From NCBI RefSeq assembly GCF_055900595.2, contig NZ_CM148325.1: a stretch of DNA of 64,000 nt. One strand, 5' to 3'. The notes under the pieces were generated by a model. The model was not told the DNA's origin and did not search any database. It saw only the letters and a list, made by a program, of their open reading frames with translations. Below are positions 14,001 through 52,495 of the stretch, piece by piece; positions within the stretch are counted from its first letter, which is position 1; each line of letters opens with the position of its first letter. The position numbers and the translations under genes are program-made.

Positions 14001-14010
14001 CTGATATGAT

Positions 14011-15060: not shown

Positions 15061-15924
15061 ATGCGTTGGCAAGGGCGACGTGAAAGTGACAATGTTGAAG
15101 ACAGGCGCAATAGCTCCGGTGGTCCGTCAATGGGCGGTCCCGGTTTCCGTCTGCCAAGCGGTAAAGGCGGGCTGATTTTACTGATAGTCGTGCTGGTTGC
15201 AGGCTACTATGGCGTTGATTTAACCGGATTGATGACCGGACAGCCGGTTTCCCAACAGCAATCAACGCGGTCAATTAGCCCTAATGAAGACGAAGCCGCA
15301 AAATTCACCTCGGTGATTCTGGCAACCACGGAAGACACCTGGGGACAGCAATTCGAGAAGATGGGTAAAACCTATCAGCAACCGAAGCTGGTCATGTACC
15401 GTGGAATGACGCGCACCGGCTGCGGGGCGGGCCAGTCCATTATGGGACCGTTCTATTGCCCGGCGGATGGCACGGTTTATATCGATCTCTCCTTCTATGA
15501 TGACATGAAAGACAAACTTGGCGCGGATGGCGATTTTGCCCAGGGGTACGTTATCGCCCATGAAGTCGGTCATCATGTGCAGAAACTGTTAGGCATCGAG
15601 CCGAAAGTCCGTCAACTGCAACAAAACGCGACGCAGGCGGAAGTAAACCGCTTATCTGTGCGTATGGAACTCCAGGCCGACTGTTTTGCCGGTGTCTGGG
15701 GGCATAGCATGCAGCAGCAAGGCGTTCTGGAAACCGGCGATCTGGAAGAAGCGCTGAACGCGGCGCAGGCCATCGGCGATGACCGTTTACAGCAGCAAAG
15801 TCAGGGGCGAGTCGTACCAGACAGTTTCACTCATGGCACTTCTCAGCAACGCTACAGCTGGTTTAAACGTGGTTTCGACAGCGGCGATCCGGCACAATGC
15901 AATACTTTTGGTAAAAGCATTTAA
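15061..15924 (+). CDS. ypfJ: Putative neutral zinc metallopeptidase (YpfJ family)
   Basis: 287 aa with an N-terminal membrane anchor and an HExxH motif (AHEVGHHVQ). Confidence 0.9.
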
Positions 15925-15938
15925 CTTTCGGGGCAGGG

Positions 15939-36013: not shown

Positions 36014-36349
36014 ATGGATAAAGAACGCATCATTCAGGAATTTGTGCCCGGCAAACAGGTCACACTGGCGCATCTCATCGCGCATCCCGGCGAGGAACTG
36101 GCGAAGAAAATCGGCGTTCCGGATGCGGGCGCAATCGGCATTATGACGCTAACACCCGGCGAAACGGCGATGATCGCCGGTGATTTAGCGCTGAAAGCCG
36201 CCGATGTGCATATCGGTTTTCTCGACCGTTTTAGCGGCGCGCTGGTGATTTATGGCTCGGTGGGTGCAGTAGAAGAAGCGTTATCACAAACCGTCAGTGG
36301 TTTAGGTCGCTTATTAAATTATACGCTGTGTGAAATGACCAAAAGTTAA
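36014..36349 (+). CDS. eutS: Ethanolamine microcompartment shell protein (BMC domain)
   Basis: 111 aa from [32 protein letters not shown]... Confidence 0.92.
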
Positions 36350-36361
36350 TACGAGGCATTC

Positions 36362-36841
36362 ATGAAACGAATTGCGTTTGTGGGTACCGTCGGGGCAGGA
36401 AAAACAACGTTATTTAATGCGTTGCAGGGGAATTATACCCTCGCCAGAAAAACACAGGCCGTGGAATTTAATGATAAGGGCGATATTGATACGCCGGGTG
36501 AATATTTTAGCCATCCCCGCTGGTATCACGCCTTAATTACCACGCTACAGGATGTGGACATGCTGATTTATGTCCACGGCGCGAATGACCCGGAAAGCCG
36601 ATTGCCTGCCGGGTTGCTGGATATTGGTGCCAGCAAACGGCAAATCGCCGTCATCAGTAAAACGGACATGCCGGATGCTGACGTCGCAGCAACGCGAAAG
36701 TTATTGCTTGAAACTGGTTTTGAAGAGCCGATTTTCGAGCTAAACAGCCACGACCCGCAAAGCGTGCAGCAACTGGTGAATTATCTGGCATCTCTCACCG
36801 AACAGGAGGAAGCAGGTGAAAAAACTCATCACAGCGAATGA
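36362..36841 (+). CDS. eutP: Ethanolamine utilization GTPase/acetate kinase-like protein (EutP/PduV family)
   Basis: 159 aa with Walker A GTVGAGKTT. Confidence 0.92.
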   Translation: MKRIAFVGTVGAGKTTLFNALQGNYTLARKTQAVEFNDKGDIDTPGEYFSHPRWYHALITTLQDVDMLIYVHGANDPESRLPAGLLDIGASKRQIAVISKTDMPDADVAATRKLLLETGFEEPIFELNSHDPQSVQQLVNYLASLTEQEEAGEKTHHSE

Positions 36842-37517
36842 TATTCGTGAAGCACATGCGCGCGGCGAACAGGCAATGTCTGTGGTTCTGCGCGCCAGCA
36901 TTATTACCCCGGAAGCCCGCGAAGTGGCGGACTTGTTGGGGTTTACCATCACCGAATGCACTGAATCGACGCCAGTAGCGGCATCTGTTCCCGTCAGCGT
37001 GCCTGCCGATAAAACTGAAAGCCAGCGTATCCGCGAAACCATCATCGCCCAGCTGCCGGAAGGCCAGTTTACCGAAAGCCTGGTCGCGCAGCTGATGGAA
37101 AAAGTGATGAAGGAAAAACAGTCGCTGGAGCAGGGGGCAATGCAGCCGAGTTTTAAATCGGTGACCGGCAAAGGCGGCATCAAAGTTATTGATGGCAGCA
37201 GCGTGAAGTTTGGTCGTTTCGATGGCGCGGAACCGCACTGCGTAGGCTTGACTGATCTCGTGACCGGAGACGACGGCAGCAGCATGGCCGCCGGTTTTAT
37301 GCAGTGGGAGAACGCCTTCTTCCCGTGGACCCTGAACTACGACGAAATCGACATGGTACTGGAAGGGGAGCTTCATGTTCGCCATGAAGGCGAAACCATG
37401 ATCGCTAAAGCAGGCGACGTGATGTTTATCCCGAAAGGTTCCAGCATCGAATTTGGTACGACATCCAGTGTGAAATTCCTGTATGTCGCCTGGCCGGCTA
37501 ACTGGCAATCCCTATGA
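36816..37517 (+). CDS. eutQ: Ethanolamine utilization cupin-domain protein
   Basis: 233 aa; start overlaps the eutP 3' end by 26 nt. Confidence 0.92.
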   Translation: MKKLITANDIREAHARGEQAMSVVLRASIITPEAREVADLLGFTITECTESTPVAASVPVSVPADKTESQRIRETIIAQLPEGQFTESLVAQLMEKVMKEKQSLEQGAMQPSFKSVTGKGGIKVIDGSSVKFGRFDGAEPHCVGLTDLVTGDDGSSMAAGFMQWENAFFPWTLNYDEIDMVLEGELHVRHEGETMIAKAGDVMFIPKGSSIEFGTTSSVKFLYVAWPANWQSL

Positions 37518-38317
37518 AAGATTTCATCACCGAAGCATGGCTAAGAGCGAACCATACGCTCAGCGAAGGCGCAGAGATCCATCTCCCTGCGGACAGTCGC
37601 CTGACGCCCTCTGCCCGGGAGTTACTGGAAAGCCGCCATCTGCGCATCAAGTTTATTGACGAGCAGGGCCGCCTGTTTGTTGACGATGAACAGCAGCAGC
37701 TACAGCCCGTTCACGTGCTGACCAGTAGTGATGAACATCCGCAGGCGTGCTGCGAACTGTGTCACCAGCCAGTGGCGAAAAAGCCGGACACGCTGACTCA
37801 CCTGTCGGCGGAAAAAATGGTCGCCAAAAGCGATCCGCGCCTGGGTTTTCGCGCTGTTCTCGACAGCACCATTGCGCTGGTAGTGTGGCTGCAAATTGAG
37901 CTGACAGAACCGTGGCAGCCGTGGCTGGCGGATATCCGTTCGCGTCTTGGCAACATTATGCGTGCCGATGTGTTGGGCGAACCGATGGGCTGCCAGGCGA
38001 TTGTCGGGTTTTCTGACGAAGATCTGCATCGACTTTCTCACCAGCCACTGCGTTATCTCGACCACGATCATCTGGTGCCGGAAGCCAGCCACGGACGCGA
38101 TGCGGCGTTGCTGAATCTGCTACGCACCAAAGTGCGGGAAACCGAAACCGTCGCGGCGCAGGTGTTTATTACCCGTAGTTTTGAAGTATTACGCCCGGAC
38201 ATCTTGCAGGCGCTGAACCGCCTTTCCAGCACGGTTTACGTGATGATGATTTTGAGCGTAACGAAGCAGCCGCTAACGGTGAAGCAGATCCAACAACGAC
38301 TGGGGGAAACGCAATGA
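37514..38317 (+). CDS. eutT: Ethanolamine utilization corrinoid adenosyltransferase
   Basis: 267 aa; 4-nt overlap with eutQ. Confidence 0.92.
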
Positions 38318-39330
38318 TTATTGAACGTTGTCGTGAACTGGCGTTGCGAGCGCCCGCCAGAGTGGTTTTTCCTGATGCGTTAGACCAACGCGTGCTGAAA
38401 GCTGCGCAATATTTACATCAACAAGGTCTGGCAACGCCCATTCTGGTCGCCAATCCGTTTGAACTTCGTCAGTTTGCGCTCAGTCACGGCGTGGCGATGG
38501 ACGGGCTACAGGTGATAGATCCGCATGGCAACCTCGCAATGCGGGAAGAATTTGCTCTCCGCTGGCTGGCCCGTGCGGGCGAAAAAACGCCGCCGGATGC
38601 GCTGGAAAAACTCACCGATCCGCTGATGTTCGCTGCCGCAATGGTCAGCGCCGGGACAGCGGATGTCTGTATCGCGGGCAATCTCTCTTCCACGGCAAAT
38701 GTGCTGCGTGCCGGATTACGCATTATTGGCTTACAGCCAGGCTGTAAAACGCTCTCCTCCATTTTCCTGATGCTGCCACAGTACAGTGGCCCCGCGTTGG
38801 GCTTTGCCGATTGCAGCGTAGTGCCACAGCCGACGGCGGCACAACTGGCGGATATCGCGCTTGCCAGCGCCGAAACCTGGCGAGCCATCACCGGAGAAGA
38901 GCCGCGCGTGGCGATGTTGTCGTTCTCCAGTAACGGCAGCGCCCGTCACCCCTGCGTTGCCAACGTGCAGCAAGCGACAGAAATCGTCCGTGAGCGCGCA
39001 CCGCAGCTGGTCGTCGATGGCGAGTTGCAGTTTGACGCCGCCTTTGTGCCAGAAGTGGCGGCGCAAAAAGCGCCAGCCAGCCCGCTACAGGGCAAAGCCA
39101 ATGTGATGGTTTTTCCGTCGCTGGAGGCGGGAAATATTGGCTACAAAATCGCACAACGACTTGGCGGATATCGTGCCGTCGGGCCATTGATACAAGGACT
39201 TGCCGCGCCGATGCACGATCTCTCTCGTGGTTGTAGCGTGCAGGAAATTATCGAGCTGGCGCTGGTGGCAGCTGTGCCGCGTCAGACAGAAGTGAACCGC
39301 GAAAGCAGTTTACAAACACTGGTTGAATGA
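38314..39330 (+). CDS. eutD: Phosphotransacetylase of the eut operon
   Basis: 338-aa Pta-family protein; 4-nt overlap with eutT. Confidence 0.93.
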
Positions 39331-39368
39331 ACGGTCCCGTTCTGGACCCTGATAAAGAGGAAAGCACA

Positions 39369-39662
39369 ATGGAAGCATTAGGAATGATCGAAACCCGGGG
39401 CCTGGTTGCACTGATTGAGGCTTCTGATGCGATGGTGAAAGCTGCGCGCGTCAAACTGGTTGGTGTTAAGCAGATTGGTGGCGGCCTGTGTACTGCCATG
39501 GTTCGCGGTGATGTTGCAGCCTGTAAAGCCGCGACCGATGCCGGTGCCGCAGCGGCACAGCGTATCGGTGAACTGGTATCCGTACATGTTATTCCGCGTC
39601 CGCACGGCGATCTGGAAGAGGTCTTCCCGATCGGCCTGAAAGGCGATAGCAGCAACCTGTAA
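39369..39662 (+). CDS. eutM: Ethanolamine microcompartment major shell protein (BMC-H)
   Basis: 97 aa from [32 protein letters not shown]...; ORF 39327.. trimmed. Confidence 0.93.
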
Positions 39663-39767
39663 TCACCCTGTGTGACGTCGATCCGGGCGTCACGCTCTCT
39701 CCGTTTTCTTTTACCTTCCGCGGAGGGTAAGGAGAGCTTTTACCTGAAATACGCCACGGAGGCGGGT

Positions 39768-40055
39768 ATGAAACTGGCAGTCGTCACAGGACAAATTGTT
39801 TGTACCGTACGCCATCACGGACTGGCGCATGACAAATTGCTGATGGTGGAAATGATTGATCCACAAGGTAATCCTGATGGGCAATGTGCTGTCGCCATCG
39901 ACAATATTGGCGCGGGAACCGGGGAGTGGGTGTTGCTGGTGAGTGGCAGTTCCGCCCGCCAGGCGCATAAAAGCGAAACGTCACCGGTCGATCTGTGCGT
40001 AATTGGCATTGTCGATGAGGTGGTCTCTGGCGGTCAGGTAATTTTCCACAAATAA
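39768..40055 (+). CDS. eutN: Ethanolamine microcompartment vertex protein (BMC-P, EutN/CcmL family)
   Basis: 95 aa from MKLAVVTGQIVCTVRHHGL...; ORF trimmed to the internal Met. Confidence 0.9.
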   Translation: MKLAVVTGQIVCTVRHHGLAHDKLLMVEMIDPQGNPDGQCAVAIDNIGAGTGEWVLLVSGSSARQAHKSETSPVDLCVIGIVDEVVSGGQVIFHK

Positions 40056-40066
40056 GGCAGAACATC

Positions 40067-41470
40067 ATGAATCAACAGGATATTGAACAGGTGGTGAAAG
40101 CGGTACTGCTGAAAATGCAAAGCAGTGACACGTCGCCCGCCGCCGTTCATGAGATGGGCGTTTTTGCTTCCCTGGATGACGCCGTTGCGGCGGCCAAAAT
40201 TGCCCAGCAAGGGTTAAAAAGCGTGGCAATGCGCCAGTTAGCCATTGCTGCTATTCGTGAAGCAGGCGAAAAACACGCCAGAGATTTAGCGGAACTTGCC
40301 GTCAGTGAAACGGGTATGGGCCGCGTAGAAGATAAATTTGCCAAAAACGTCGCTCAGGCACGCGGTACGCCAGGCGTTGAGTGCCTCTCTCCACAGGTGC
40401 TGACCGGTGACAACGGCCTGACTTTAATTGAAAACGCGCCCTGGGGCGTGGTGGCTTCGGTGACGCCTTCCACTAACCCGGCGGCAACCGTAATTAATAA
40501 CGCCATCAGCCTGATTGCCGCGGGCAACAGCGTCATTTTTGCCCCGCATCCGGCGGCGAAAAAAGTCTCTCAACGGGCTATTACGTTGCTCAACCAGGCG
40601 ATTGTTGCCGCAGGCGGGCCGGAAAACTTACTGGTTACTGTGGCAAATCCAGATATCGAAACCGCGCAACGCTTATTCAAGTTTCCGGGCATCGGTCTGT
40701 TGGTGGTGACCGGCGGCGAAGCGGTGGTGGAAGCGGCGCGCAAACACACCAATAAACGTCTGATTGCCGCAGGTGCTGGCAACCCGCCGGTGGTGGTGGA
40801 TGAAACCGCCGACCTCGCCCGTGCCGCTCAGTCTATCGTCAAAGGCGCTTCTTTCGATAACAACATCATTTGTGCCGATGAAAAGGTACTGATTGTTGTT
40901 GATAGCGTAGCCGATGAACTGATGCGTCTGATGGAAGGCCAGCACGCGGTGAAACTGACCGCAGAACAGGCGCAGCGACTGCAACCGGTGTTGCTGAAAA
41001 ATATCGACGAGCGCGGAAAAGGCACCGTCAGCCGTGACTGGGTGGGGCGCGATGCGGCGAAAATCGCGGCGGCAATCGGCCTGAACGTGCCGCAAGAAAC
41101 GCGCTTGCTGTTTGTAGAAACCACCGAAGAACATCCGTTTGCCGTAACCGAATTGATGATGCCGGTGCTGCCGGTCGTGCGCGTCGCCAACGTGGAGGAT
41201 GCCATTGCGCTGGCGGTGAAACTGGAAGGCGGTTGCCACCACACGGCGGCAATGCACTCGCGCAATATCGAGAACATGAACCAAATGGCGAACGCCATTG
41301 ATACCAGTATTTTCGTTAAGAACGGACCGTGCATTGCCGGGCTGGGGCTGGGCGGGGAAGGCTGGACCACGATGACCATCACTACGCCAACCGGTGAAGG
41401 GGTAACCAGCGCGCGTACGTTTGTCCGTCTGCGTCGCTGTGTATTAGTCGATGCGTTTCGCATTGTTTAA
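40067..41470 (+). CDS. eutE: CoA-acylating acetaldehyde dehydrogenase
   Basis: 467-aa aldehyde dehydrogenase family protein. Confidence 0.94.
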   Translation: MNQQDIEQVVKAVLLKMQSSDTSPAAVHEMGVFASLDDAVAAAKIAQQGLKSVAMRQLAIAAIREAGEKHARDLAELAVSETGMGRVEDKFAKNVAQARGTPGVECLSPQVLTGDNGLTLIENAPWGVVASVTPSTNPAATVINNAISLIAAGNSVIFAPHPAAKKVSQRAITLLNQAIVAAGGPENLLVTVANPDIETAQRLFKFPGIGLLVVTGGEAVVEAARKHTNKRLIAAGAGNPPVVVDETADLARAAQSIVKGASFDNNIICADEKVLIVVDSVADELMRLMEGQHAVKLTAEQAQRLQPVLLKNIDERGKGTVSRDWVGRDAAKIAAAIGLNVPQETRLLFVETTEEHPFAVTELMMPVLPVVRVANVEDAIALAVKLEGGCHHTAAMHSRNIENMNQMANAIDTSIFVKNGPCIAGLGLGGEGWTTMTITTPTGEGVTSARTFVRLRRCVLVDAFRIV

Positions 41471-41480
41471 GGAGTAACCG

Positions 41481-42317
41481 ATGGCGCACGACGAACAATG
41501 GCTTACCCCGCGGCTGCAAACGGCGGCAACGCTGTGTAACCAGACGCCCGCCGCGTCGGAATCTCCGCTGTGGCTGGGGGTGGATCTGGGCACCTGCGAT
41601 GTGGTGTCGATGGTTGTCGACGGCGACGGTCAGCCGGTGGCGGTATGCCTCGACTGGGCCGATGTGGTCCGCGACGGCATCGTCTGGGATTTCTTCGGTG
41701 CTGTCACCATTGTTCGTCGCCATCTCGATACCCTTGAGCAGCAATTTGGTCGCCGTTTTAGCCATGCGGCGACCTCATTTCCTCCTGGTACGGACCCGCG
41801 TATTTCCATCAACGTGCTGGAGTCTGCCGGGCTGGAAGTGAGCCATGTGCTGGATGAGCCAACCGCAGTCGCGGATCTACTGCAACTGGATAACGCAGGC
41901 GTAGTGGATATTGGCGGCGGCACTACCGGAATTGCCATCGTGAAAAAGGGCAAGGTGACTTATTCAGCGGATGAAGCGACCGGCGGACATCACATTTCTC
42001 TGACTCTCGCCGGAAATCGCCGTATTTCGCTGGGAGAGGCAGAGCAGTACAAGCGCGGTCACGGTGACGAGATTTGGCCTGCGGTGAAGCCGGTGTACGA
42101 AAAAATGGCGGACATTGTTGCCCGACATATTGAAGGGCAGGGCATTACTGATTTATGGCTGGCGGGCGGCTCCTGTATGCAACCGGGCGTGGCGGAACTG
42201 TTTTGCAAACAATTCCCGGCGTTACAGGTGCATCTACCGCAGCACAGTTTGTTTATGACCCCGCTGGCGATCGCCAGTAGCGGGCGAGAGAAAGCGGAGG
42301 GGATCTATGCAAAATGA
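41481..42317 (+). CDS. eutJ: Ethanolamine utilization chaperone-like protein (actin/Hsp70 fold)
   Basis: 278 aa with DxG and GGGT ATPase motifs. Confidence 0.92.
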   Translation: MAHDEQWLTPRLQTAATLCNQTPAASESPLWLGVDLGTCDVVSMVVDGDGQPVAVCLDWADVVRDGIVWDFFGAVTIVRRHLDTLEQQFGRRFSHAATSFPPGTDPRISINVLESAGLEVSHVLDEPTAVADLLQLDNAGVVDIGGGTTGIAIVKKGKVTYSADEATGGHHISLTLAGNRRISLGEAEQYKRGHGDEIWPAVKPVYEKMADIVARHIEGQGITDLWLAGGSCMQPGVAELFCKQFPALQVHLPQHSLFMTPLAIASSGREKAEGIYAK

Positions 42318-43494
42318 ATTGCAGACCGCGCTCTTTCAGGCGTTCGATACCCTGAATCTGCAACGGGTAAAAACATTTAGCGTTCCACCGGTGACGCTTT
42401 GCGGCCCGGGCGCGGTGAGCAGTTGCGGACAGCAAGCACAAACGCGTGGGCTGAAACATCTGTTCGTGATGGCAGACAGCTTTTTGCATCAGGCGGGGAT
42501 GACCGCCGGGCTGACGCGCAGTCTGGCCGTTAAAGGCATCGCCATGACGCTCTGGCCATGTCCGGTGGGCGAACCGTGCATCACTGACGTGTGTGCCGCC
42601 GTGGCGCAACTGCGCGAATCAGGCTGTGACGGGGTGATCGCGTTTGGCGGTGGCTCGGTGCTGGATGCGGCAAAAGCCGTTGCGTTGCTGGTGACGAACC
42701 CCGACAGCACGCTGGCAGAAATGTCAGAAACCAGCGTTCTGCAACCGCGTCTGCCGCTGATTGCCATTCCAACTACCGCCGGAACCGGCTCTGAAACCAC
42801 CAATGTAACGGTGATTATCGACGCGGTGAGCGGGCGCAAGCAGGTGTTAGCACATGCCTCGTTGATGCCGGATGTGGCGATTCTCGATGCCGCGCTGACC
42901 GAAGGTGTGCCGTCGCATGTCACGGCAATGACCGGTATCGACGCGTTAACTCATGCCATTGAAGCGTACAGCGCGCTGAACGCTACACCGTTTACCGACA
43001 GTCTGGCGATTGGTGCCATTGCGATGATTGGCAAATCACTGCCGAAAGCAGTGGGCTACGGTCACGACCTTGCCGCGCGCGAGAGTATGTTGCTGGCTTC
43101 ATGCATGGCGGGAATGGCATTTTCCAGTGCCGGACTTGGGTTATGTCACGCGATGGCGCATCAGCCGGGGGCGGCGCTGCATATTCCGCACGGACTGGCG
43201 AACGCCATGCTGCTGCCCACGGTGATGGAGTTTAACCGGATGGTCTGTCGCGAACGCTTTAGTCAGATTGGTCGGGCGCTGCGAACTAAAAAATCCGACG
43301 ATCGTGATGCTATTAACGCGGTAAGTGAGCTGATTGCGGAAGTCGGGATTGGTAAACGACTGGGCGATGTTGGTGCGGCATCTGCGCATTACGGCGCATG
43401 GGCGCAGGCCGCGCTGGAAGATATTTGTCTGCGCAGCAACCCGCGTACCGCCAGCCTGGAGCAGATTGTCGGCTTGTACGCAGCGGCGCAATAA
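42307..43494 (+). CDS. eutG: Iron-containing alcohol dehydrogenase of the eut operon
   Basis: 395-aa Fe-ADH family protein; overlaps the eutJ end by 11 nt. Confidence 0.93.
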   Translation: MQNELQTALFQAFDTLNLQRVKTFSVPPVTLCGPGAVSSCGQQAQTRGLKHLFVMADSFLHQAGMTAGLTRSLAVKGIAMTLWPCPVGEPCITDVCAAVAQLRESGCDGVIAFGGGSVLDAAKAVALLVTNPDSTLAEMSETSVLQPRLPLIAIPTTAGTGSETTNVTVIIDAVSGRKQVLAHASLMPDVAILDAALTEGVPSHVTAMTGIDALTHAIEAYSALNATPFTDSLAIGAIAMIGKSLPKAVGYGHDLAARESMLLASCMAGMAFSSAGLGLCHAMAHQPGAALHIPHGLANAMLLPTVMEFNRMVCRERFSQIGRALRTKKSDDRDAINAVSELIAEVGIGKRLGDVGAASAHYGAWAQAALEDICLRSNPRTASLEQIVGLYAAAQ

Positions 43495-43496
43495 AT

Positions 43497-43580
<84 letters not shown>

Positions 43581-43610
43581 ATAAATAACAACTAACAGGG
43601 AGTAAAGGCG

Positions 43611-44837
43611 ATGGGAATTAACGAAATCATCATGTACATCATGATGTTCTTTATGCTGATAGCTGCCGTGGACAGGATCCTGTCGCAGTTCGGCGGTTCT
43701 GCTCGTTTCCTCGGTAAGTTCGGTAAAAGTATCGAAGGATCCGGCGGCCAGTTCGAAGAAGGCTTTATGGCAATGGGCGCACTGGGCCTGGCGATGGTCG
43801 GTATGACCGCACTGGCACCAGTTCTGGCCCACGTACTTGGGCCGGTGATTATCCCGGTTTACGAAATGCTCGGTGCTAACCCATCGATGTTCGCCGGAAC
43901 ACTGCTGGCGTGCGACATGGGCGGCTTCTTCCTCGCGAAAGAGCTGGCGGGCGGCGATGTGGCAGCGTGGCTATACTCTGGGTTAATTCTCGGATCGATG
44001 ATGGGGCCAACGATTGTGTTTTCCATTCCGGTGGCGCTCGGCATTATCGAACCTTCTGACCGTCGTTATCTGGCGCTCGGCGTGCTGGCGGGCATTGTGA
44101 CCATTCCAATTGGCTGTATCGCTGGAGGTCTGGTAGCTATGTATTCCGGTGTGCAGATCAACGGGCAGCCGGTGGAATTCACCTTTGCGCTTATCCTGAT
44201 GAATATGATCCCGGTACTTATCGTCGCGGTACTGGTGGCGCTGGGGCTGAAATTCATCCCGGAAAAAATGATCAACGGCTTCCAGATCTTCGCCAAGTTC
44301 CTCGTTGCATTGATCACCCTCGGTCTTGCTGCCGCGGTAGTGAAATTCCTCCTTGGCTGGGAACTGATCCCCGGTCTTGATCCGATCTTTATGGCCCCTG
44401 GCGATAAACCCGGTGAAGTGATGCGCGCCATTGAAGTTATCGGTTCTATCTCCTGCGTGCTGTTAGGGGCGTATCCGATGGTGCTGCTGCTGACCCGCTG
44501 GTTTGAAAAACCGCTGATGAGCGTCGGTAAAGTGCTGAATATGAACAACATCGCGGCAGCCGGCATGGTGGCAACGCTTGCCAACAACATCCCGATGTTT
44601 GGCATGATGAAGCAGATGGATACCCGCGGCAAAGTCATCAACTGTGCCTTCGCCGTTTCCGCTGCTTTCGCCCTGGGTGACCACTTAGGCTTCGCCGCTG
44701 CCAACATGAACGCCATGATCTTCCCGATGATTGTCGGCAAGTTGATCGGCGGCGTAACGGCGATTGGCGTGGCGATGATGCTGGTGCCAAAAGAAGACGC
44801 GACCGCGGCTAAAACCGAAGCGGAGGCACAATCGTGA
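43611..44837 (+). CDS. eutH: Ethanolamine permease / transporter
   Basis: 408-aa polytopic membrane protein. Confidence 0.93.
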   Translation: MGINEIIMYIMMFFMLIAAVDRILSQFGGSARFLGKFGKSIEGSGGQFEEGFMAMGALGLAMVGMTALAPVLAHVLGPVIIPVYEMLGANPSMFAGTLLACDMGGFFLAKELAGGDVAAWLYSGLILGSMMGPTIVFSIPVALGIIEPSDRRYLALGVLAGIVTIPIGCIAGGLVAMYSGVQINGQPVEFTFALILMNMIPVLIVAVLVALGLKFIPEKMINGFQIFAKFLVALITLGLAAAVVKFLLGWELIPGLDPIFMAPGDKPGEVMRAIEVIGSISCVLLGAYPMVLLLTRWFEKPLMSVGKVLNMNNIAAAGMVATLANNIPMFGMMKQMDTRGKVINCAFAVSAAFALGDHLGFAAANMNAMIFPMIVGKLIGGVTAIGVAMMLVPKEDATAAKTEAEAQS

Positions 44838-46237
44838 ACACTCGCCAGCTACTGAGCGTCGGTATCGATATCGGCACTACCACCACCCAGGTGATCTTCT
44901 CCCACCTGGAGCTGGTTAACCGTGCGGCGGTGTCGCAGGTGCCGCGCTACGAATTCATCAAACGCGAAATTAGCTGGCAAAGCCCGGTGTTCTTTACCCC
45001 TGTCGATAAACTGGGCGGTTTAAAAGAAGCGGAACTGAAAACCTTAATCCTCGAGCAATATCAGGCTGCGGGCATTGCGCCGGAAAGCGTTGATTCTGGT
45101 GCCATCATCATCACCGGTGAAAGCGCGAAAACCCGCAATGCTCGCCCGGCGGTGATGACGCTCTCCCAGTCGCTTGGCGATTTTGTCGTCGCCAGCGCCG
45201 GGCCGCATCTCGAATCCGTGATCGCCGGTCACGGTGCCGGGGCGCAAACCCTTTCTGAACAACGGCTGTGTCGGGTACTGAATATCGATATTGGCGGTGG
45301 CACCGCGAACTACGCTTTGTTCGATGCCGGAAAAATCAGCGGCACCGCTTGCCTCAACGTCGGCGGTCGCCTGCTGGAAACCGACAGCCAGGGGCGCGTG
45401 GTTTACGCTCATAAACCGGGGCAGATGATAGTGGATGAGTGCTTCGGTGCAGGCACTGACGCCCGTTCGCTGACTGGCGCGCAGCTGGTGCAGGTTACCC
45501 GGCGGATGGCGGAACTGATTGTCGAAGTGATTGACGGAACGCTCTCGCCGCTCGCGCAGGCATTGATGCAAACCGGTTTGCTGCCCGCAGGTGTTACGCC
45601 AGAAATCATTACGCTTTCTGGCGGCGTGGGCGAATGTTATCGCCACCAGCCCGCTGACCCGTTCTGTTTTGCCGATATTGGCCCGCTTCTGGCAACGGCG
45701 CTGCATGACCATCCGCGCCTGCGTGAGATGAACGTGCAGTTTCCGGCGCAAACCGTACGCGCCACGGTGATTGGCGCGGGCGCACATACCCTTTCGCTCT
45801 CTGGCAGCACAATCTGGCTGGAGGGGGTACAACTGCCGCTGCGCAATTTGCCGGTGGCGATCCCAATTGATGAAACGGATCTGGTGAGTGCCTGGCAACA
45901 AGCGCTAATTCAGCTGGATCTTTGCCCCAAAACTGACGCGTACGTGCTGGCGCTTCCCGCCTCGCTGCCTGTGCGTTACGCCGCGGTACTGACGGTCATC
46001 AACGCGCTGGTCGATTTCGTCGCGCGTTTTCCGAATCCGCATCCCCTGCTGGTGGTGGCCGGGCAGGATTTTGGTAAAGCTCTGGGCATGTTGTTGCGCC
46101 CACAGCTACAACAACTCCCGTTGGCAGTCATTGACGAAGTGATTGTCCGCGCGGGGGACTATATCGACATTGGTACGCCTCTTTTTGGCGGATCGGTTGT
46201 GCCGGTGACGGTGAAATCACTCGCATTTCCTTCCTGA
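44834..46237 (+). CDS. eutA: Ethanolamine ammonia-lyase reactivating factor
   Basis: 467 aa; 4-nt overlap with eutH. Confidence 0.93.
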   Translation: MNTRQLLSVGIDIGTTTTQVIFSHLELVNRAAVSQVPRYEFIKREISWQSPVFFTPVDKLGGLKEAELKTLILEQYQAAGIAPESVDSGAIIITGESAKTRNARPAVMTLSQSLGDFVVASAGPHLESVIAGHGAGAQTLSEQRLCRVLNIDIGGGTANYALFDAGKISGTACLNVGGRLLETDSQGRVVYAHKPGQMIVDECFGAGTDARSLTGAQLVQVTRRMAELIVEVIDGTLSPLAQALMQTGLLPAGVTPEIITLSGGVGECYRHQPADPFCFADIGPLLATALHDHPRLREMNVQFPAQTVRATVIGAGAHTLSLSGSTIWLEGVQLPLRNLPVAIPIDETDLVSAWQQALIQLDLCPKTDAYVLALPASLPVRYAAVLTVINALVDFVARFPNPHPLLVVAGQDFGKALGMLLRPQLQQLPLAVIDEVIVRAGDYIDIGTPLFGGSVVPVTVKSLAFPS

Positions 46238-46248
46238 GGGAACGACTT

Positions 46249-47610
46249 ATGAAACTAAAGACCACATTGTTCGGCAATGTATATCAGTTTAAGGATGTAA
46301 AAGAGGTGCTGGCTAAAGCCAACGAACTGCGTTCGGGGGATGTGCTGGCGGGCGTTGCAGCGGCAAGTTCACAGGAGCGCGTGGCGGCAAAGCAGGTGTT
46401 GTCGGAAATGACCGTAGCGGACATCCGCAATAATCCGGTGATTGCCTATGAAGATGACTGCGTGACGCGGCTGATTCAGGACGACGTTAACGAAACGGCC
46501 TACAACCAGATTAAAAACTGGAGCATCAGCGAACTGCGTGAGTATGTGCTGAGTGATGAAACCAGCGTGGACGACATTGCCTTTACCCGCAAAGGGCTGA
46601 CCTCGGAAGTGGTCGCGGCGGTAGCGAAGATTTGCTCCAACGCGGACCTGATCTACGGCGCGAAGAAAATGCCGATTATCAAAAAGGCCAATACTACCAT
46701 CGGTATTCCGGGCACCTTTAGCGCCCGTTTGCAGCCGAACGATACCCGTGACGACGTGCAGAGTATCGCCGCGCAAATCTACGAAGGGCTTTCCTTCGGG
46801 GTAGGCGATGCGGTGATCGGCGTTAACCCGGTGACTGACGACGTGGAAAACTTAAGCCGCGTGCTGGATACCATCTATGGCGTGATCGACAAATTCAACA
46901 TTCCGACCCAGGGCTGCGTGCTGGCGCACGTTACTACCCAGATTGAAGCGATCCGTCGCGGCGCGCCGGGCGGGCTGATTTTCCAGAGCATCTGCGGCAG
47001 CGAAAAAGGGCTGAAAGAATTTGGCGTGGAGCTGGCGATGCTCGATGAAGCACGCGCAGTGGGCGCAGAGTTTAACCGTATCGCCGGGGAAAACTGCCTC
47101 TACTTCGAAACCGGGCAAGGTTCTGCGCTATCGGCGGGCGCTAACTTCGGCGCAGATCAGGTAACGATGGAAGCGCGTAACTACGGGCTGGCACGTCATT
47201 ACGATCCGTTTATCGTCAACACCGTAGTGGGCTTTATTGGGCCAGAGTATCTCTACAACGACCGGCAGATTATCCGTGCGGGCTTAGAAGATCACTTTAT
47301 GGGCAAACTGAGCGGCATTTCTATGGGCTGTGACTGCTGCTACACCAACCACGCTGACGCTGACCAGAACCTCAACGAAAACCTGATGATCCTGCTCGCC
47401 ACCGCAGGCTGCAACTACATCATGGGGATGCCGCTGGGTGATGACATCATGCTCAACTACCAGACCACCGCATTCCACGATACCGCCACTGTGCGTCAGT
47501 TACTCAACCTGCGCCCGTCACCGGAGTTTGAACGCTGGCTGGAAAGCATGGGCATTATGGCAAACGGTCGCCTGACCAAACGGGCGGGCGATCCGTCACT
47601 GTTCTTCTGA
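46249..47610 (+). CDS. eutB: Ethanolamine ammonia-lyase large (heavy) subunit
   Basis: 453 aa MKLKTTLFGNVYQFKDVKEVLAKANELRSGD...; directly follows eutA after an 11-nt spacer. Confidence 0.95.
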   Translation: MKLKTTLFGNVYQFKDVKEVLAKANELRSGDVLAGVAAASSQERVAAKQVLSEMTVADIRNNPVIAYEDDCVTRLIQDDVNETAYNQIKNWSISELREYVLSDETSVDDIAFTRKGLTSEVVAAVAKICSNADLIYGAKKMPIIKKANTTIGIPGTFSARLQPNDTRDDVQSIAAQIYEGLSFGVGDAVIGVNPVTDDVENLSRVLDTIYGVIDKFNIPTQGCVLAHVTTQIEAIRRGAPGGLIFQSICGSEKGLKEFGVELAMLDEARAVGAEFNRIAGENCLYFETGQGSALSAGANFGADQVTMEARNYGLARHYDPFIVNTVVGFIGPEYLYNDRQIIRAGLEDHFMGKLSGISMGCDCCYTNHADADQNLNENLMILLATAGCNYIMGMPLGDDIMLNYQTTAFHDTATVRQLLNLRPSPEFERWLESMGIMANGRLTKRAGDPSLFF

Positions 47611-47630
47611 TGACGCGGAGATAACACATC

Positions 47631-48518
47631 ATGGATCAAAAACAGATTGAAGAAATTGTACGCAGCGTGATGGCGTCAATGGGACAAGCGGCCCCCGCGC
47701 CGTCAGAAGCAAAATGCGCCACTACCACCTGTGCAGCACCGATGACCTCGGAAAGCTGCGCGCTGGATTTAGGTTCCGCAGAAGCAAAAGCGTGGATTGG
47801 CGTTGAAAACCCACATCGCGCAGACGTATTAACTGAACTGCGCCGCAGCACCGTGGCTCGCGTCTGTACCGGTCGTGCCGGTCCGCGTCCGCGTACCCAG
47901 GCGTTGCTGCGTTTCCTGGCCGATCACTCTCGTTCGAAAGACACCGTACTGAAAGAAGTGCCGGAAGAGTGGGTGAAAGCGCAGGGCTTGCTGGAGGTCC
48001 GCTCTGAAATTAGCGACAAAAATCTCTATCTGACTCGCCCGGATATGGGCCGCCGCTTGTGTGCAGAGGCTGTTGAAGCGCTGAAAGCGCAGTGTGTTGC
48101 CAATCCGGACGTACAGGTCGTTATTTCTGATGGCCTGTCAACTGATGCGATCACCGTGAACTACGAAGAGATCCTGCCACCGCTGATGGCGGGCCTGAAA
48201 CAGGCCGGGTTGAAAGTCGGCACACCGTTCTTTGTGCGTTACGGTCGCGTGAAGATTGAAGATCAGATTGGCGAACTTCTTGGCGCGAAAGTGGTGATCC
48301 TGCTGGTGGGGGAACGCCCAGGATTAGGGCAGTCAGAAAGCCTCTCCTGCTACGCCGTTTACTCGCCGCGTATGGCAACCACCGTTGAGGCCGATCGCAC
48401 CTGTATCTCTAACATTCACCAGGGCGGCACGCCGCCGGTTGAAGCCGCAGCCGTCATTGTGGATTTGGCGAAACGTATGCTGGAGCAGAAAGCATCCGGC
48501 ATCAACATGACCCGATAA
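47631..48518 (+). CDS. eutC: Ethanolamine ammonia-lyase small (light) subunit
   Basis: 295 aa. Confidence 0.94.
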
Positions 48519-48527
48519 GGAGGCATC

Positions 48528-49187
48528 ATGCCAGCTTTAGATTTGATTCGACCGTCGGTAACCGCCATGCGGGTGATTGCCTCTGTCAACGCCGAATTTG
48601 CGCGTGAACTGAAATTGCCGCCGCATATTCGTAGCCTCGGGCTGATTTCTGCTGATTCCGATGACGTCACCTACATTGCGGCTGACGAAGCGACCAAGCA
48701 GGCGATGGTTGAAGTCGTGTATGGTCGCTCGCTGTATGCGGGAGCTGCACACGGGCCGTCACCGACTGCCGGTGAGGTGCTGATTATGCTTGGTGGGCCA
48801 AACCCGGCGGAAGTGCGTGCTGGTCTGGATGCGATGGTTGCGCATATTGAAAATGGCGCTGCTTTCCAGTGGGCTAATGATGCAGAAAACACAGCCTTCC
48901 TGGCGCATGTCGTTTCGCGTACCGGCTCTTATCTCTCATCAACCGCCGGGATCACGCTTGGCGATCCGCTGGCGTATCTGGTGGCACCGCCGCTGGAAGC
49001 GACCTACGGCATTGATGCAGCGTTGAAATCTGCCGACGTGCAGCTGGTGACCTATGTCCCGCCACCGTCTGAAACCAACTACTCGGCAGCATTTTTAACC
49101 GGTAGCCAGGCCGCGTGTAAAGCAGCCTGTAACGCCTTTACCGATGCAGTGCTGGAAATCGCGCGTAATCCAATCCAGCGTGCGTAA
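48528..49187 (+). CDS. eutL: Ethanolamine microcompartment shell protein (tandem BMC domains)
   Basis: 219 aa. Confidence 0.93.
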
Positions 49188-49199
49188 CGGAGGTTGCCG

Positions 49200-49700
49200 A
49201 TGATCAATGCACTGGGATTGCTGGAAGTGGACGGCATGGTCGCCGCGATAGATGCAGCTGATGCCATGCTCAAAGCAGCTAACGTTCGTCTGCTCAGTCA
49301 CGAAGTGCTTGACCCTGGTCGCCTAACGCTGGTGGTGGAAGGCGATCTGGCGGCGTGTCGTGCGGCGCTGGACGCAGGTTGTGCTGCCGCGATGCGTACC
49401 GGGCGTGTCATCAGCCGTAAGGAGATCGGTCGGCCAGACGATGACACCCAGTGGCTGGTTACTGGCTTTAACCGCCAGCCGAAGCAACCCGTAAAGGAAC
49501 CCGACGCGCCAGTTATCGTCGCGGAATCTGCTGACGAGTTGTTGGCGCTGTTAACATCAGTACGTCAGGGAATGACGGCAGGAGAAGTGGCTGCCCACTT
49601 TGGCTGGCCGCTGGAAAAAGCCAGAAATGCGCTCGAACAGCTCTTTTCTGCCGGGACGTTACGTAAACGCAGTAGTCGTTATCGTCTCAAGCCCCATTAA
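49200..49700 (+). CDS. eutK: Ethanolamine microcompartment shell protein with C-terminal nucleic-acid-binding-like domain
   Basis: 166 aa from MINALGLLEVDGMVAAIDAADAMLKAANV... Confidence 0.9.
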   Translation: MINALGLLEVDGMVAAIDAADAMLKAANVRLLSHEVLDPGRLTLVVEGDLAACRAALDAGCAAAMRTGRVISRKEIGRPDDDTQWLVTGFNRQPKQPVKEPDAPVIVAESADELLALLTSVRQGMTAGEVAAHFGWPLEKARNALEQLFSAGTLRKRSSRYRLKPH

Positions 49701-49745
49701 CCTGTCGGAGGTGCCGGGTGTCCTACAACACCCGGCATTAACATC

Positions 49746-50798
49746 ATGAAAAAGACCCGTACAGCTAATTTGCACCATCTTTATCATGAACCCTTACCCG
49801 AAAACCTGAAGCTAACGCCGAAGGTCGAAGTGGATAATGTTCATCAACGGCAAACAACGGATGTCTATGAACATGCTTTGACGATTACCGCCTGGCAGCA
49901 GATTTACGATCAGCTGCATCCGGGCAAATTTCATGGTGAATTTACGGAAATTCTGCTCGATGATATTCAGGTTTTCCGTGAATACACGGGGCTGGCGCTG
50001 CGTCAGTCGTGCCTGGTCTGGCCGAATTCGTTCTGGTTTGGCATTCCGGCGACGCGCGGTGAGCAGGGATTTATCGGTTCGCAATGTCTGGGAAGCGCAG
50101 AAATAGCGACGCGCCCTGGTGGAACCGAGTTTGAATTAAGTACGCCGGACGATTACACGATCCTTGGCGTGGTGCTTTCTGAAGATGTCATCACCCGGCA
50201 GGCTAACTTTTTGCATAACCCGGAAAGGGTGCTGCATATGTTACGTAACCAGTCGGCGCTGGAAGTGAAAGAGCAGCATAAAGCCGCGCTGTGGGGCTTT
50301 GTCCAACAGGCTCTGGCGACATTTTGCGAGAACCCGGAAAATCTCCATCAGCCTGCAGTGCGAAAAGTGCTGGGGGATAATTTGCTAATGGCGATGGGGG
50401 CGATGCTGGAAGAAGCGCAGCCAATGGTGACGGTGGAAAGCATCAGTCATCAGAGTTACCGTCGGTTGCTTTCCCGCGCCCGTGAATATGTGCTGGAAAA
50501 CATGTCCGAACCGGTGACGGTGCTGGACTTGTGTAATCAACTGCACGTCAGTCGCCGCACCTTGCAAAACGCATTTCACGCTATTTTGGGCATTGGCCCG
50601 AATGCGTGGCTGAAACGCATTCGCCTGAACGCCGTGCGCCGTGAACTGATTAGCCCGTGGTCGCAAAGTATGACGGTAAAAGACGCCGCCATGCAGTGGG
50701 GATTCTGGCATCTTGGGCAGTTTGCCACGGATTATCAGCAATTGTTTGCAGAAAAGCCTTCACTGACGCTGCATCAGCGGATGCAGGAACTGGAGTGA
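49746..50798 (+). CDS. eutR: AraC-family transcriptional activator of the eut operon
   Basis: 350 aa with a C-terminal AraC-type HTH. Confidence 0.93.
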
Positions 50799-50874: not shown

Positions 50875-51192
50875 TTATTGCCCAACGGGATAGGCGATAA
50901 ACAAACCGACAATTGTCAAAATACACGCCAGCAGGAATACCAACATACAATTTACGCGCTTTCGCGAAATTTTAAATAAATAGCAAAATAGTGTTGTTAC
51001 CACGATCACTACCGGGATAGTCATAAAATTAATAACGATGAGTGCTATCAATCCAAAACTTGCTCCTCCACCGTGGGGAATAAAAATGTGTTCTTCAAAA
51101 TAAACTTCTATAGCAAATGCCAGCACACATCCCAGAAAACTCATATCCAGATGAGGGTGCCATTTACTTTCTTTATGTGATGTGTCTGACAT
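50875..51192 (-). CDS. Hypothetical small membrane protein (105 aa, about 3 predicted TM helices)
   Basis: ATG preceded by a GGGAG SD; hydrophobic segments FLGCVLAFAIEVYF, FGLIALIVINFMTIPVVIVVTTLFCYLF, CMLVFLLACILTIVGLFIAYPV; 40 nt downstream of and co-oriented with the 420-aa gene. Confidence 0.6.
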   Translation of the reverse strand: MSDTSHKESKWHPHLDMSFLGCVLAFAIEVYFEEHIFIPHGGGASFGLIALIVINFMTIPVVIVVTTLFCYLFKISRKRVNCMLVFLLACILTIVGLFIAYPVGQ

Positions 51193-51232
51193 TCTTAAAT
51201 GCTCCCGTGAGCAAACTGGCGCAAAATAATTT

Positions 51233-52495
51233 CTAAGATTGCTGATAAGACGTCGCTGTTGTCCGGCACTCCGGGCAGATAAACGCGTAAATTATCCCTT
51301 CGCCGTATTGTTCAATATCGGCATAATCCAGTTGCGCAAGAAACATCATTGTGTGGGAACATTGCGGACAGAGAGGATATTCCGCGTCCTGAATCCAGGT
51401 TGGATGCCCGCCAAGTTGCGAGAAAGAGACAGGTAAAAATGGGTCTGCGGCAAATAACGGTGACCTAAGGTTTCCCTGTCTCATGCTGTTTACAGGGAGT
51501 CGACGCCATTCCGATACATCATCCGGCAGCCAGGCAGGCGGGATATTTTTTGCAGACAAATGAGCGTTACCCTTTGAGTCCATGTAGCCGAAAATGGTGC
51601 TGTAGGCGGTGCAACATTCGCAAGTCACGACGCGAAAACTGCCGTTATCGCTAAGACCCGTTGCCTTCAGGTCAACGTCGAAAAGATTTGTTAGTGGCAA
51701 TGCGCAATTTGGACAGGTATCGTTGCGTTCATCAACAACACGCAAAGCTTCGCAAGACCCGGTGCTTTTCATCTCCAGATGAAAACATTGAGGAAAATAG
51801 AGATTACGCCTTTGATCTTCAGCGGTTAACTCCCAACCGGCCTCATGCGCATATTCTTCAGGCTCGATGTAAAGGGAGCTGCGCCACGGCGGTGGGCTAT
51901 TGCGCCAGTGGGCAAAACGTTCAACGACAACGTCATCCCCAATCCATGCCAGACATTGCAGAATACAATTTCTGTTTTCTGCATCATCCTCAACCCGTTC
52001 TAACAGCCTGTCGCGTACATCTGTGGGGGCGCGGTGGAAAGGCATATAAGAATCATTGTCCAAATCATCGTAAGAGATCCATTCTCTGAAATAGGCATTC
52101 AGATTCGCCTGGGTAAATGCCGCCAGACAAAGGCAAATCTCCTGAGCGAGCTTATATTCACCAGATGCAAAGCGTTCTGTGGCGTAATCAGCCATCAGCT
52201 GCGCTTGATCGGTGGTCAGTTGTTGATACAGGGCATCTGTGGGAACGGGGCAGGGAGTCCAGTCGATTAACGCATCGAATTTCCGCGGTTGGTGAATTAA
52301 TTTCAGCATGACAACCGGATCGCTTAACCCTGCAAACGCATTCACGATCTTTTTGTTTTTCTTGATATATTCGTCGTGCTCACGTTGCTGTTGGGCCTGC
52401 TCGCAGGGCATGCAGTATCCGTTAGTACGCGCTGCGGTTTCCGGAAGAATGGTTGATATACAAGCGGGGCTTTTACAGGGAATACGGTGAGTCAT
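51233..52495 (-). CDS. Hypothetical cysteine-rich protein (420 aa) with zinc-ribbon motifs and a DUF1963/YwqG-like C-terminal region
   Basis: ATG with an AAGGAG SD 8 nt upstream; N-terminal C-x4-C...C-x2-C (CKSPAC...CMPC), internal CPNC...CECC, and C-terminal GGHPTWIQDAEYPLCPQCSHTMMFLAQLDYADIEQYGEGIIYAFICPEC. Family assignment is from memory, not a search. Confidence 0.7.
   Translation of the reverse strand: MTHRIPCKSPACISTILPETAARTNGYCMPCEQAQQQREHDEYIKKNKKIVNAFAGLSDPVVMLKLIHQPRKFDALIDWTPCPVPTDALYQQLTTDQAQLMADYATERFASGEYKLAQEICLCLAAFTQANLNAYFREWISYDDLDNDSYMPFHRAPTDVRDRLLERVEDDAENRNCILQCLAWIGDDVVVERFAHWRNSPPPWRSSLYIEPEEYAHEAGWELTAEDQRRNLYFPQCFHLEMKSTGSCEALRVVDERNDTCPNCALPLTNLFDVDLKATGLSDNGSFRVVTCECCTAYSTIFGYMDSKGNAHLSAKNIPPAWLPDDVSEWRRLPVNSMRQGNLRSPLFAADPFLPVSFSQLGGHPTWIQDAEYPLCPQCSHTMMFLAQLDYADIEQYGEGIIYAFICPECRTTATSYQQS

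Follow-up and report, generated by a model that had tools for sequence, protein, structure and literature searches.

The start codon of eutQ lies inside the eutP reading frame, and the question raised by this junction is whether the overlap couples translation of the two genes or is incidental to the way in which eutQ is initiated. The window that we analyzed, a stretch of 64,000 nucleotides from contig NZ_CM148325.1 (assembly GCF_055900595.2), contains an intact operon of 17 eut genes (eutSPQTDMNEJGHABCLKR; + strand, 36014-50798), with maeB/talA/tktB upstream and hemF downstream. No prophage separates eutA from eutB in the window, whereas in K-12 the CPZ-55 prophage stands beside eutA in the supplementary gene-table entries of PMC10666635. 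A query spanning eutS-eutT (36300-37600) is 100% identical to E. coli Z0117EC0005 (NZ_CP098223.1), but its identity to the majority of the remaining complete E. coli genomes is only ~95%. A probe from the purC region gives the same identity pattern, and the DNA therefore comes from an uncommon E. coli lineage.

The first-pass annotation had listed five overlapping eut junctions (26, 11, 4, 4 and 4 nt), and these are exact: ORF coordinates, sequence and RefSeq annotation agree (Table 1), and identical boundaries are present in the RefSeq/PGAP annotation of NZ_CP098223.1 and of an O104:H4 strain. Because eutP ends at 36841 and the eutQ GTG is at 36816, the two genes have 26 nt in common. Among 5402 matching records (from 5401 of the 5426 complete E. 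coli genomes), only 2 lack a 55-nt segment across this junction at 95% identity or more, and the segment differs from most E. coli genomes by at most ~1 nt in 55.

Table 1. Features at the eutP/eutQ junction and at the other overlapping junctions of the eut operon, with positions in the window.
Feature	Position	Strand	Evidence
eutP CDS, 159 aa, EutP/PduV GTPase-like acetate kinase	36362-36841	+	ORF, RefSeq, PF10662
eutQ Shine-Dalgarno (SD) sequence AGGAGG, inside eutP, spacer of ~5-6 nt to GTG	36804-36809	+	Sequence; 16S duplex
eutQ CDS, 233 aa, GTG start; N-terminal region without Pfam match, then EutQ cupin domain	36816-37517	+	ORF, RefSeq, PF06249, N-terminus kept in 52 loci
Two-frame stretch, 26 nt: eutQ codons 1-8 plus 2 nt (VKKLITAN); eutP codons 152-159 plus stop (GEKTHHSE*)	36816-36841	+	Sequence
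eutQ Ala7 codon GCG; G36836 is the first base of eutP codon 159 (GAA)	36834-36836	+	Orthologue comparison
eutP stop TGA, 23 nt downstream of eutQ GTG	36839-36841	+	Sequence
eutQ in-frame ATG, Met21; only plausible non-overlapping start; rejected	36876-36878	+	Conservation, SD
eutQ/eutT ATGA overlap, 4 nt	37514-37517	+	ORFs, RefSeq
eutT/eutD ATGA overlap, 4 nt	38314-38317	+	ORFs, RefSeq
eutJ/eutG overlap, 11 nt	42307-42317	+	ORFs, RefSeq
eutH/eutA GTGA overlap, 4 nt	44834-44837	+	ORFs, RefSeq

The overlap of eutP and eutQ is already known: E. coli and Salmonella are routinely annotated with it, a published survey of gene distances lists it, and a 2025 study of EutQ mentions it. In the K-12 entries of the survey supplement (PMC10666635), eutP (b2461) and eutQ (b2460) have the same geometry (-26), as do eutQ/eutT (-4), eutT/eutD (-4), eutJ/eutG (-11) and eutH/eutA (-4). 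In Salmonella enterica LT2 eutQ likewise starts at a GTG inside eutP and the EutQ N-terminus reads MKKLITANDIR as it does here; the Salmonella overlap is 23 nt rather than 26 nt in the loci of two S. enterica subspecies (L010 and L011), where Ala7 is encoded by GCT and this generates a TAA one codon earlier in the eutP frame. Yang et al. (2025) noted the overlap of eutQ codons 1-9 with eutP in Salmonella and planned their deletion accordingly (PMC12487888).

Both products have the features of their families. EutP matches PF10662 over residues 1-143 (E = 1.7e-29) as a P-loop GTPase-like protein, and EutQ matches PF06249 over residues 85-232 (E = 1.6e-69), with a cupin domain preceded by an N-terminal extension of ~100 residues. 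PDB entry 2PYT matches EutQ residues 102-232; because the solved structures span the cupin domain only, they are uninformative on the EutQ N-terminus, which aligns with that of Salmonella EutQ, the protein studied in PMC12487888.

Overlapping junctions are not rare in this operon or its surroundings. Five of the 16 eut junctions overlap, and in the hyf operon in the same window the same is true of five of nine annotated junctions (1, 1, 11, 4 and 8 nt). Unidirectional gene pairs in E. coli are spaced at -8 to +6 nt in 24% of cases and at +9 to +12 nt in another 7% (PMC10666635), and six eut junctions belong to the latter class. The 26 nt shared by eutP and eutQ are the longest overlap in the window. 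Among long overlaps the phase -8/-11/-14 and so on is favored several-fold (PMC10666635), and overlaps of 26, 23 and 11 nt are all in this series; by our own arithmetic, the probability that a random frame stays open for 8 further codons after loss of a stop is ~(61/64)^8, i.e. ~0.7. Thus, five overlapping junctions out of 16 are unremarkable and do not exceed chance.

A comparison among genera shows that the overlap is labile. In a scan with one genome per species covering Escherichia, Citrobacter, Salmonella, Klebsiella, Pseudocitrobacter, Buttiauxella, Yokenella, Entomohabitans, Pluralibacter, Morganella, Serratia, Pseudomonas and Xenophilus, 55 loci with EutQ relatives were found, of which 52 were usable. 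The scan was seeded with six peptide patterns, one of which was MKKLITAN, a caveat for the conservation of the N-terminus; the other five were internal, and tblastn reached query residue 1 in 52 of 52 loci. The locus of C. koseri NCTC10786 (L046), which has several frame disruptions, was excluded from junction statistics. eutP and eutQ overlap by 26 nt in Escherichia, C. sedlakii, Yokenella and Entomohabitans, by 23 nt in Citrobacter, Salmonella, Klebsiella and Pseudocitrobacter, and by 4 nt (NTGA) in Buttiauxella, Pseudomonas and Xenophilus, and they are separated by a gap of 4-15 nt in Serratia, Morganella, Pluralibacter and Intestinirhabdus. In Serratia sp. DD3 a TAG precedes the eutQ ATG by 4 nt, and past this TAG the same frame reads ANEKTDHRQ*; this locus is thus one substitution away from the 26-nt state.

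The remaining overlaps were compared using gene calls in Klebsiella, Buttiauxella, Morganella and Pseudomonas together with tblastn projections, and all of them except one vary in the same manner. At eutQ/eutT there is a gap of 4-12 nt in many Citrobacter as well as in Buttiauxella, Morganella and Pseudomonas. The eutJ/eutG overlap is 11 nt in Klebsiella and Morganella and 8 nt in Buttiauxella, with a 1-nt gap in Pseudomonas, and eutH/eutA overlap by 4 nt in Klebsiella and Buttiauxella and stand 2 or 10 nt apart in Morganella and Pseudomonas. eutT/eutD is the only eut junction for which an overlap (of 4 or 11 nt) is seen in all usable orthologue loci that we examined; for each of the other overlapping eut junctions, one or more genera that preserve the gene order have a gap.

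The variation within the 26-nt stretch indicates which of the two frames is constrained. In the clade with a GTG start, seven sites in the overlap vary, and six of these seven are third positions of eutQ codons and first positions of eutP codons; by our own arithmetic, the chance that at least six of seven sites fall on one specified codon position is ~0.007. All six changes are silent in EutQ, and in EutP they cause K>E, H>Y, H>N, H>Y, S>R and E>stop. VKKLITAN is invariant in this clade except for a single T>I. Because the variation follows the silent sites of eutQ, the EutP tail is whatever the eutQ codons spell in the other frame, with the variants GEKTHHSE, GEKTYHS, GEETNHS, GEETHYR and DENVSHRE. 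The PduV-EutP domain stops at residue 143 of 159, and the last 16 EutP residues, including the tail, lie beyond it. We also considered a dual-coding region constrained in both frames; the changes found are silent in eutQ and alter EutP or make or remove its stop, and this candidate was rejected. Even the length of the overlap depends on such a change: Ala7 is GCT in Citrobacter, Salmonella and Klebsiella, giving TAA in the eutP frame and an overlap of 23 nt, so that 26 nt and 23 nt differ by one change at 36836 (GCG versus GCT) that is silent in eutQ. This pattern of substitutions shows that the constraint is specific to the eutQ frame and that the EutP tail is unconstrained.

These characteristics resemble the model in which overlaps arise by stop loss and 3' extension: the tail of the upstream protein is made from the downstream ribosome-binding site (RBS) and first codons, is unconstrained and shifts in length by single substitutions, as in EutP. 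The eutP/eutQ case differs from the model in that the order of events is taken from the distribution among genera rather than from a reconstructed phylogeny; this distribution suggests that the overlap originated when the eutP stop was lost or displaced, and that its length has drifted from then on.

How, then, is eutQ initiated? The duplex between the eutQ SD and the 3' end of 16S rRNA has a predicted free energy of -10.3 kcal/mol and is among the strongest in the operon, whereas the eutP SD is weak (-5.9 kcal/mol); the eutT SD is essentially absent (-1.7 kcal/mol), and at the eutJ/eutG junction the eutG start is preceded by a GGAGG SD (-10.0 kcal/mol). Irrespective of whether eutP and eutQ overlap, a GAGG/GGAGG core is retained at almost every orthologue locus, the exception being Xenophilus (L052). 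eutN has a strong SD and yet the lowest abundance, and because of this mismatch we use SD strength only for the contrast between eutQ and eutP and not to explain abundances across the operon.

Combining the SD with the constraint on the eutQ frame and the lability of the overlap, we consider it likely that eutQ is translated from the GUG at 36816 by means of its own SD and mostly independently of eutP, and that the 26-nt overlap has no function of its own. In this model, (i) 30S subunits would bind AGGAGG within the last eutP codons and initiate at GUG 36816, so that eutQ initiation would be mainly de novo and largely independent of eutP translation, (ii) the eutP frame would run on through the eutQ RBS and the first eight eutQ codons to the next stop, and this read-on would add the short unconstrained GEKTHHSE tail to EutP past its GTPase-like domain, (iii) selection would act on the eutQ frame, the first residues of which would open the N-terminal H1-H2 region by which EutQ docks to the shell, and (iv) changes that are silent in eutQ would let the tail of EutP and the place of the eutP stop drift, and with them the length of the overlap. 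Ribosomes translating eutP would cross the eutQ start and stop 23 nt past it; at the ratio of the two proteins reported in the literature this would be minor traffic. Independent initiation by 30S subunits at a strong SD would also account for the published excess of EutQ far above EutP. A point against this model is that ribosomes that terminate 23 nt past the start might in principle move back and re-initiate, and some facilitation or re-initiation at eutP/eutQ is possible. A search of the available library for papers that combine eutQ with ribosome profiling came back empty, and neither a direct measurement of initiation at the junction nor a reporter assay with a premature eutP stop turned up.

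Alternatively, the coupling could be facilitated and non-stoichiometric: a hairpin would hide the eutQ SD and GUG, ribosomes translating eutP would open it, and initiation would be de novo and would nevertheless depend on eutP traffic. Unfolding of this kind lets the downstream product exceed the upstream one (PMC6728339, discussion), and in the minimum-free-energy fold of the E. coli junction both elements are indeed paired with upstream eutP, GGAGG with UCUCU (36791-36795) and CAGGUGA with UUAUCUG. The fold is, however, no more stable than shuffled sequences (z = -0.21; 79 of 200 shuffles fold as well or better), and among 21 loci RNAalifold returned 0 consensus pairs. Covariation gave no support to the E. 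coli hairpin (63.6% of cells paired, which is the shuffle mean), the helix that pairs with the SD is formed in 42.7% of cells, and no measure exceeded the shuffled or slid controls. A conserved hairpin that occludes the eutQ SD and start was rejected, being seen only in the E. coli minimum-free-energy fold, which shuffles equal and the 21 orthologues do not support; we consider facilitated coupling unlikely.

The reading of the first-pass annotation was that the overlap forces termination-reinitiation and thereby keeps EutP and EutQ, like the other overlapping pairs, in a fixed stoichiometry for microcompartment assembly. General trends speak for it: subunits of heteromeric complexes are enriched in short overlaps and E. 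coli pairs with 4-nt overlaps are usually coupled (PMC6728339, PMC10666635), four of five tested 4-nt pairs, including hyfHI, being coupled in Huber et al. (2019; PMC6728339). In addition, the K-12 eutP/eutQ pair carries the mark 'CMPLX yes' in its entry in the supplement to Huber et al. (2023; PMC10666635), and eutT sits behind an ATGA overlap without an SD. Several lines of evidence stand against it. The shell genes eutS/M/N/L/K have no overlapping junctions and are spaced by gaps of 9-105 nt. In E. coli, EutQ is the top Eut protein with an iBAQ value of 100 against 7 +/- 1 for EutP, i.e. ~14:1 (PMC11334477; iBAQ ratios are approximate and reflect protein stability as well), and in Salmonella EutP is evenly cytosolic and EutQ encapsulated (PMC12487888), so that the published abundances and localizations do not fit a fixed ratio or a single complex of EutP and EutQ. 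In the same organism a eutP deletion mutant grows like wild type, and EutQ bridges shell and cargo (PMC12487888). A distance of -26 nt lies beyond the window of -8 to +6 nt that has been tied experimentally to termination-reinitiation (PMC10666635); eutJ/eutG (-11) is just beyond it, whereas eutQ/eutT, eutT/eutD and eutH/eutA (-4) fall within it. Finally, Morganella, Serratia and Pluralibacter have kept the same genes with a gap instead of the overlap. Taken together, the shell junctions, abundances, lability, distance and the SD of eutQ itself leave the claim of tight coupling for stoichiometric assembly unsupported, and we regard this reading of eutP/eutQ as quite improbable; the overlap is better described as incidental and ordinary, and the functional interpretation initially attached to it is mostly without support.

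The short overlaps deserve separate consideration. The NTGA pairs hyfH/hyfI, menD/menH and astD/astB of Huber et al. (2019) are co-directional and have the downstream SD inside the upstream gene, a geometry that is shared by eutQ/eutT, eutT/eutD and eutH/eutA, and hyfH/hyfI is located in the same window as the eut operon. By analogy, coupling at the eut NTGA junctions is plausible. eutP/eutQ is unlike these coupled pairs in that the stop lies 23 nt downstream of the start and the two proteins are produced at ~1:14. Judging from sequence features, eutQ/eutT is the junction at which termination-reinitiation is most plausible, because it combines an ATGA overlap with a eutT start that is essentially without SD.

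An overlap could also be an artefact of annotation. Long overlaps reflect mis-called starts in some cases, and an in-frame ATG (Met21) located 60 nt downstream of the eutQ GTG could be the true start, in which case eutP and eutQ would not overlap. The comparison of starts among 52 loci speaks for the GTG. The eutQ frame opens past a stop at 36777-36779 with GTG 36816 as its first start codon, and all 52 orthologue loci encode MK(K/T/Q)L(I/V)(T/S)A... from the codon homologous to 36816, which is GTG in 30 loci and ATG in 22; the loci without a eutP/eutQ overlap still begin eutQ at this codon. The two genes share one frame in Morganella and Pluralibacter, where an in-frame TAA lies 12 nt upstream of the homologous eutQ ATG; because there is no start codon between this TAA and the ATG, the start is forced to be there. 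Across eutQ codons 2-20 the mean column entropy is 0.505, 0.460 and 1.415 at codon positions 1, 2 and 3 (48 distinct sequences); variation dominated by third positions is the signature of a translated region, and EutQ residues 1-20 are thus kept. Residue 21 is Met in just 18 of the 52 loci (L in 21, I in 11 and V in 2), and a search of the sequence upstream of ATG 36876 for an SD found none, whereas GTG 36816 has a strong one. Moreover, EutQ 1-99, counted from the annotated start, directs GFP into the compartment (PMC12487888). A mis-annotated eutQ start was accordingly rejected, given that codons 2-20 show coding conservation and that the orthologues begin at the homologous codon. The eutQ start within eutP is, on this comparative evidence, genuine; a downstream start outside eutP, which the first-pass annotation had named as the observation that would overturn it, did not materialize, and the artefact reading, already refuted at the comparative level, is in our view very improbable.

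Scarcely credible is recoding by a +1 slip on the A6 run at 36819-36824 to give an EutP-EutQ fusion protein: eutP is read here as GAA-AAA-ACT, on which tRNA-Lys could pass into the eutQ frame by slipping +1, and a 381-aa EutP-EutQ fusion ORF (P0097) is present in the protein library, but six A's are a weak slippery site, other genera do not preserve the A-run (Klebsiella has AAG AAA, and Yokenella and Entomohabitans have AAA ACG or AAA ACA), and P0097 is a Salmonella eutP frameshifted near residue 101, away from the A-run. A different fusion, P0089, joins eutQ to eutD through a deletion in E. coli.

From residue 1 onward, the N-terminus of EutQ appears to be related to that of EutT, which is encoded by the following gene. 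BLASTP aligned the two N-termini with 14 of 37 identities (E = 2e-4, for a single comparison), and hhalign matched columns 1-42 of one orthologue profile with columns 1-42 of the other at a probability of 74.7% (E = 2.6e-5), as against 0.1% (E = 0.47) for a reversed decoy. HMMs built from the single families gave no significant cross-match, the EutQ HMM scoring EutT at E = 1.7 among 853 window segments. A few small proteins in the library score with both HMMs, P0160 reaching 28.1 and 20.4 bits. A joint EutQ/EutT profile collected 146 cluster representatives in which the module is nearly always N-terminal and among which are EutQ cupins, EutT adenosyltransferases, a high-GC phosphotransacetylase with an EutQ-like N-terminal region (P0134), standalone proteins of ~100 aa (P0124) and tandem copies (P0183). 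A separate search for homologous proteins with the profile of the N-terminal module returned only short EutQ and EutT fragments. The TP.AR..A...G half of the module weakly resembles the E3_binding/peripheral-subunit-binding domain (P0187, 25.3 bits at a cut-off of 23.7), and no Pfam model matched EutQ 1-84 or EutT 1-94.

The pattern of the module, MK.LIT...R..H...(l.l)...(I/L)TP.AR..., spans ~42 residues, corresponds to helices H1-H2 and starts with the eight eutQ codons that lie inside eutP. In the study by Yang et al. (2025; PMC12487888), in which EutT is named only once, EutQ helices H1-H2 are assigned to binding of the EutL/EutM shell interface. The likeness between the EutQ and EutT N-termini is suggestive, and we put forward tentatively, as a possibility about which we remain somewhat doubtful, that the ~42-residue module present in EutQ, EutT, a phosphotransacetylase fusion, standalone proteins and tandem copies may be a portable shell-docking domain for which Pfam has no model. 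That the common module starts at Met1 in both EutQ and EutT lends modest support to the eutQ start.

For work on this operon, the GTG start of eutQ can be trusted, and eutP deletions or EutQ tags must leave 36800-36841 intact. An overlap by itself is poor evidence of stoichiometric coupling, as illustrated by EutP and EutQ, which differ ~14-fold and of which only one is inside the organelle. The eutP/eutQ junction neatly illustrates, on a small scale, how overlaps come about and drift with one frame constrained. The discovery value of the overlap itself is small, and the EutQ/EutT module is the only lead toward a new experiment; if the module is what we suggest, the Eut shell would be expected to recruit EutT just as it does EutQ.

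EutQ and EutT appear to have in common an N-terminal module that begins at Met1 in both proteins (pattern MK.[LF]IT...[IL]R..H...[IL]TP.AR..). The two N-termini match with E = 2e-4 in a single BLASTP comparison and, at the level of profiles, with a probability of 74.7% and E = 2.6e-5 in hhalign, the reversed decoy giving E = 0.47. HMMs built from EutQ only and from EutT only gave no significant reciprocal matches, and no Pfam model covers the module region in the N-terminus of either protein. In EutQ, the module corresponds to the region of helices H1-H2, which has been assigned to binding of the EutL/EutM shell interface (Yang et al. 2025, PMC12487888).

The EutQ/EutT-type module is also found, in different architectures, in five representatives of our protein library (P0134, P0124, P0183, P0187 and P0130): P0134 is a phosphotransacetylase fused to the module and to an EutQ-like H3/H4 region, P0124 consists of the module on its own in a protein of about 100 aa, and P0183 carries it in tandem copies. 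The TP.AR..A...G half of the module weakly resembles the peripheral-subunit-binding domain (Pfam E3_binding); P0187 scores 25.3 bits against this model, above the cut-off of 23.7 bits, and the other members score below that cut-off.

Coordinates of the features discussed
Feature	Position	Strand	Remark
Putative common N-terminal module, EutQ	36816-36941		codons 1-42
Putative common N-terminal module, EutT	37514-37639		codons 1-42
eutT start region	37489-37517		ATGA overlap with eutQ
Extra 5' part of maximal eutM ORF	39327-39368		
hyf operon	about 1-10597	-	mapped from RefSeq record, collinearity assumed
hyfH/hyfI overlap	about 1041-1044	-	mapped from record, collinearity assumed
hyfF/hyfG overlap	about 3301-3311	-	mapped from record, collinearity assumed
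Hypothetical protein	50875-51192	-	105 aa, membrane-embedded by appearance
DUF1963 protein	51233-52495	-	420 aa

Overlapping reading frames also occur in the hyf operon, in which five of the nine annotated junctions overlap, by 1, 1, 11, 4 and 8 nt. The hyfH/hyfI pair is among those for which coupling has been shown experimentally (PMC6728339), and hyfJ is frameshifted according to the annotation of the matching RefSeq genome.

By sequence comparison, the window comes from an uncommon E. coli lineage. When 5426 complete genomes were compared with a eut probe (36300-37600) and a purC probe (14000-16000), only 14-20 were at least 99% identical at either probe, and for nearly all the remaining genomes identity ranged from 90-99% with the eut probe and from 95-99% with the purC probe. 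The interval between eutR and hemF (50875-52495, - strand) contains two genes, and since eutR adjoins hemF in K-12, this block looks like a small strain-specific insertion.

Several public assemblies have frame disruptions at or near the 3' end of eutP. A 1-nt insertion in Citrobacter koseri NCTC10786 turns a 23-nt eutP/eutQ overlap into one of 4 nt in the assembly; the assembly of Intestinirhabdus alba has 15 nt between the end of eutP and eutQ; and in that of a Salmonella library member (P0097) a eutP frameshift near residue 101 leads into the eutQ frame, generating a 381-aa fusion ORF.

Further along the operon, the eutD/eutM overlap is apparent and not real. The longest eutM ORF (ATG 39327, 111 aa) would give a further ATGA overlap with eutD; RefSeq and orthologue projections place the EutM start at ATG 39369 (97 aa), which is preceded by AAAGAGGAA. 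At the eutQ/eutT junction, many Citrobacter, as well as Buttiauxella, Morganella and Pseudomonas, have a gap of 4-12 nt instead of an overlap. In the window, however, the Shine-Dalgarno sequence of eutT is essentially absent (-1.7 kcal/mol) and, because this is combined with an ATGA overlap, we suggest that eutT is the operon's best candidate for genuine termination-reinitiation.
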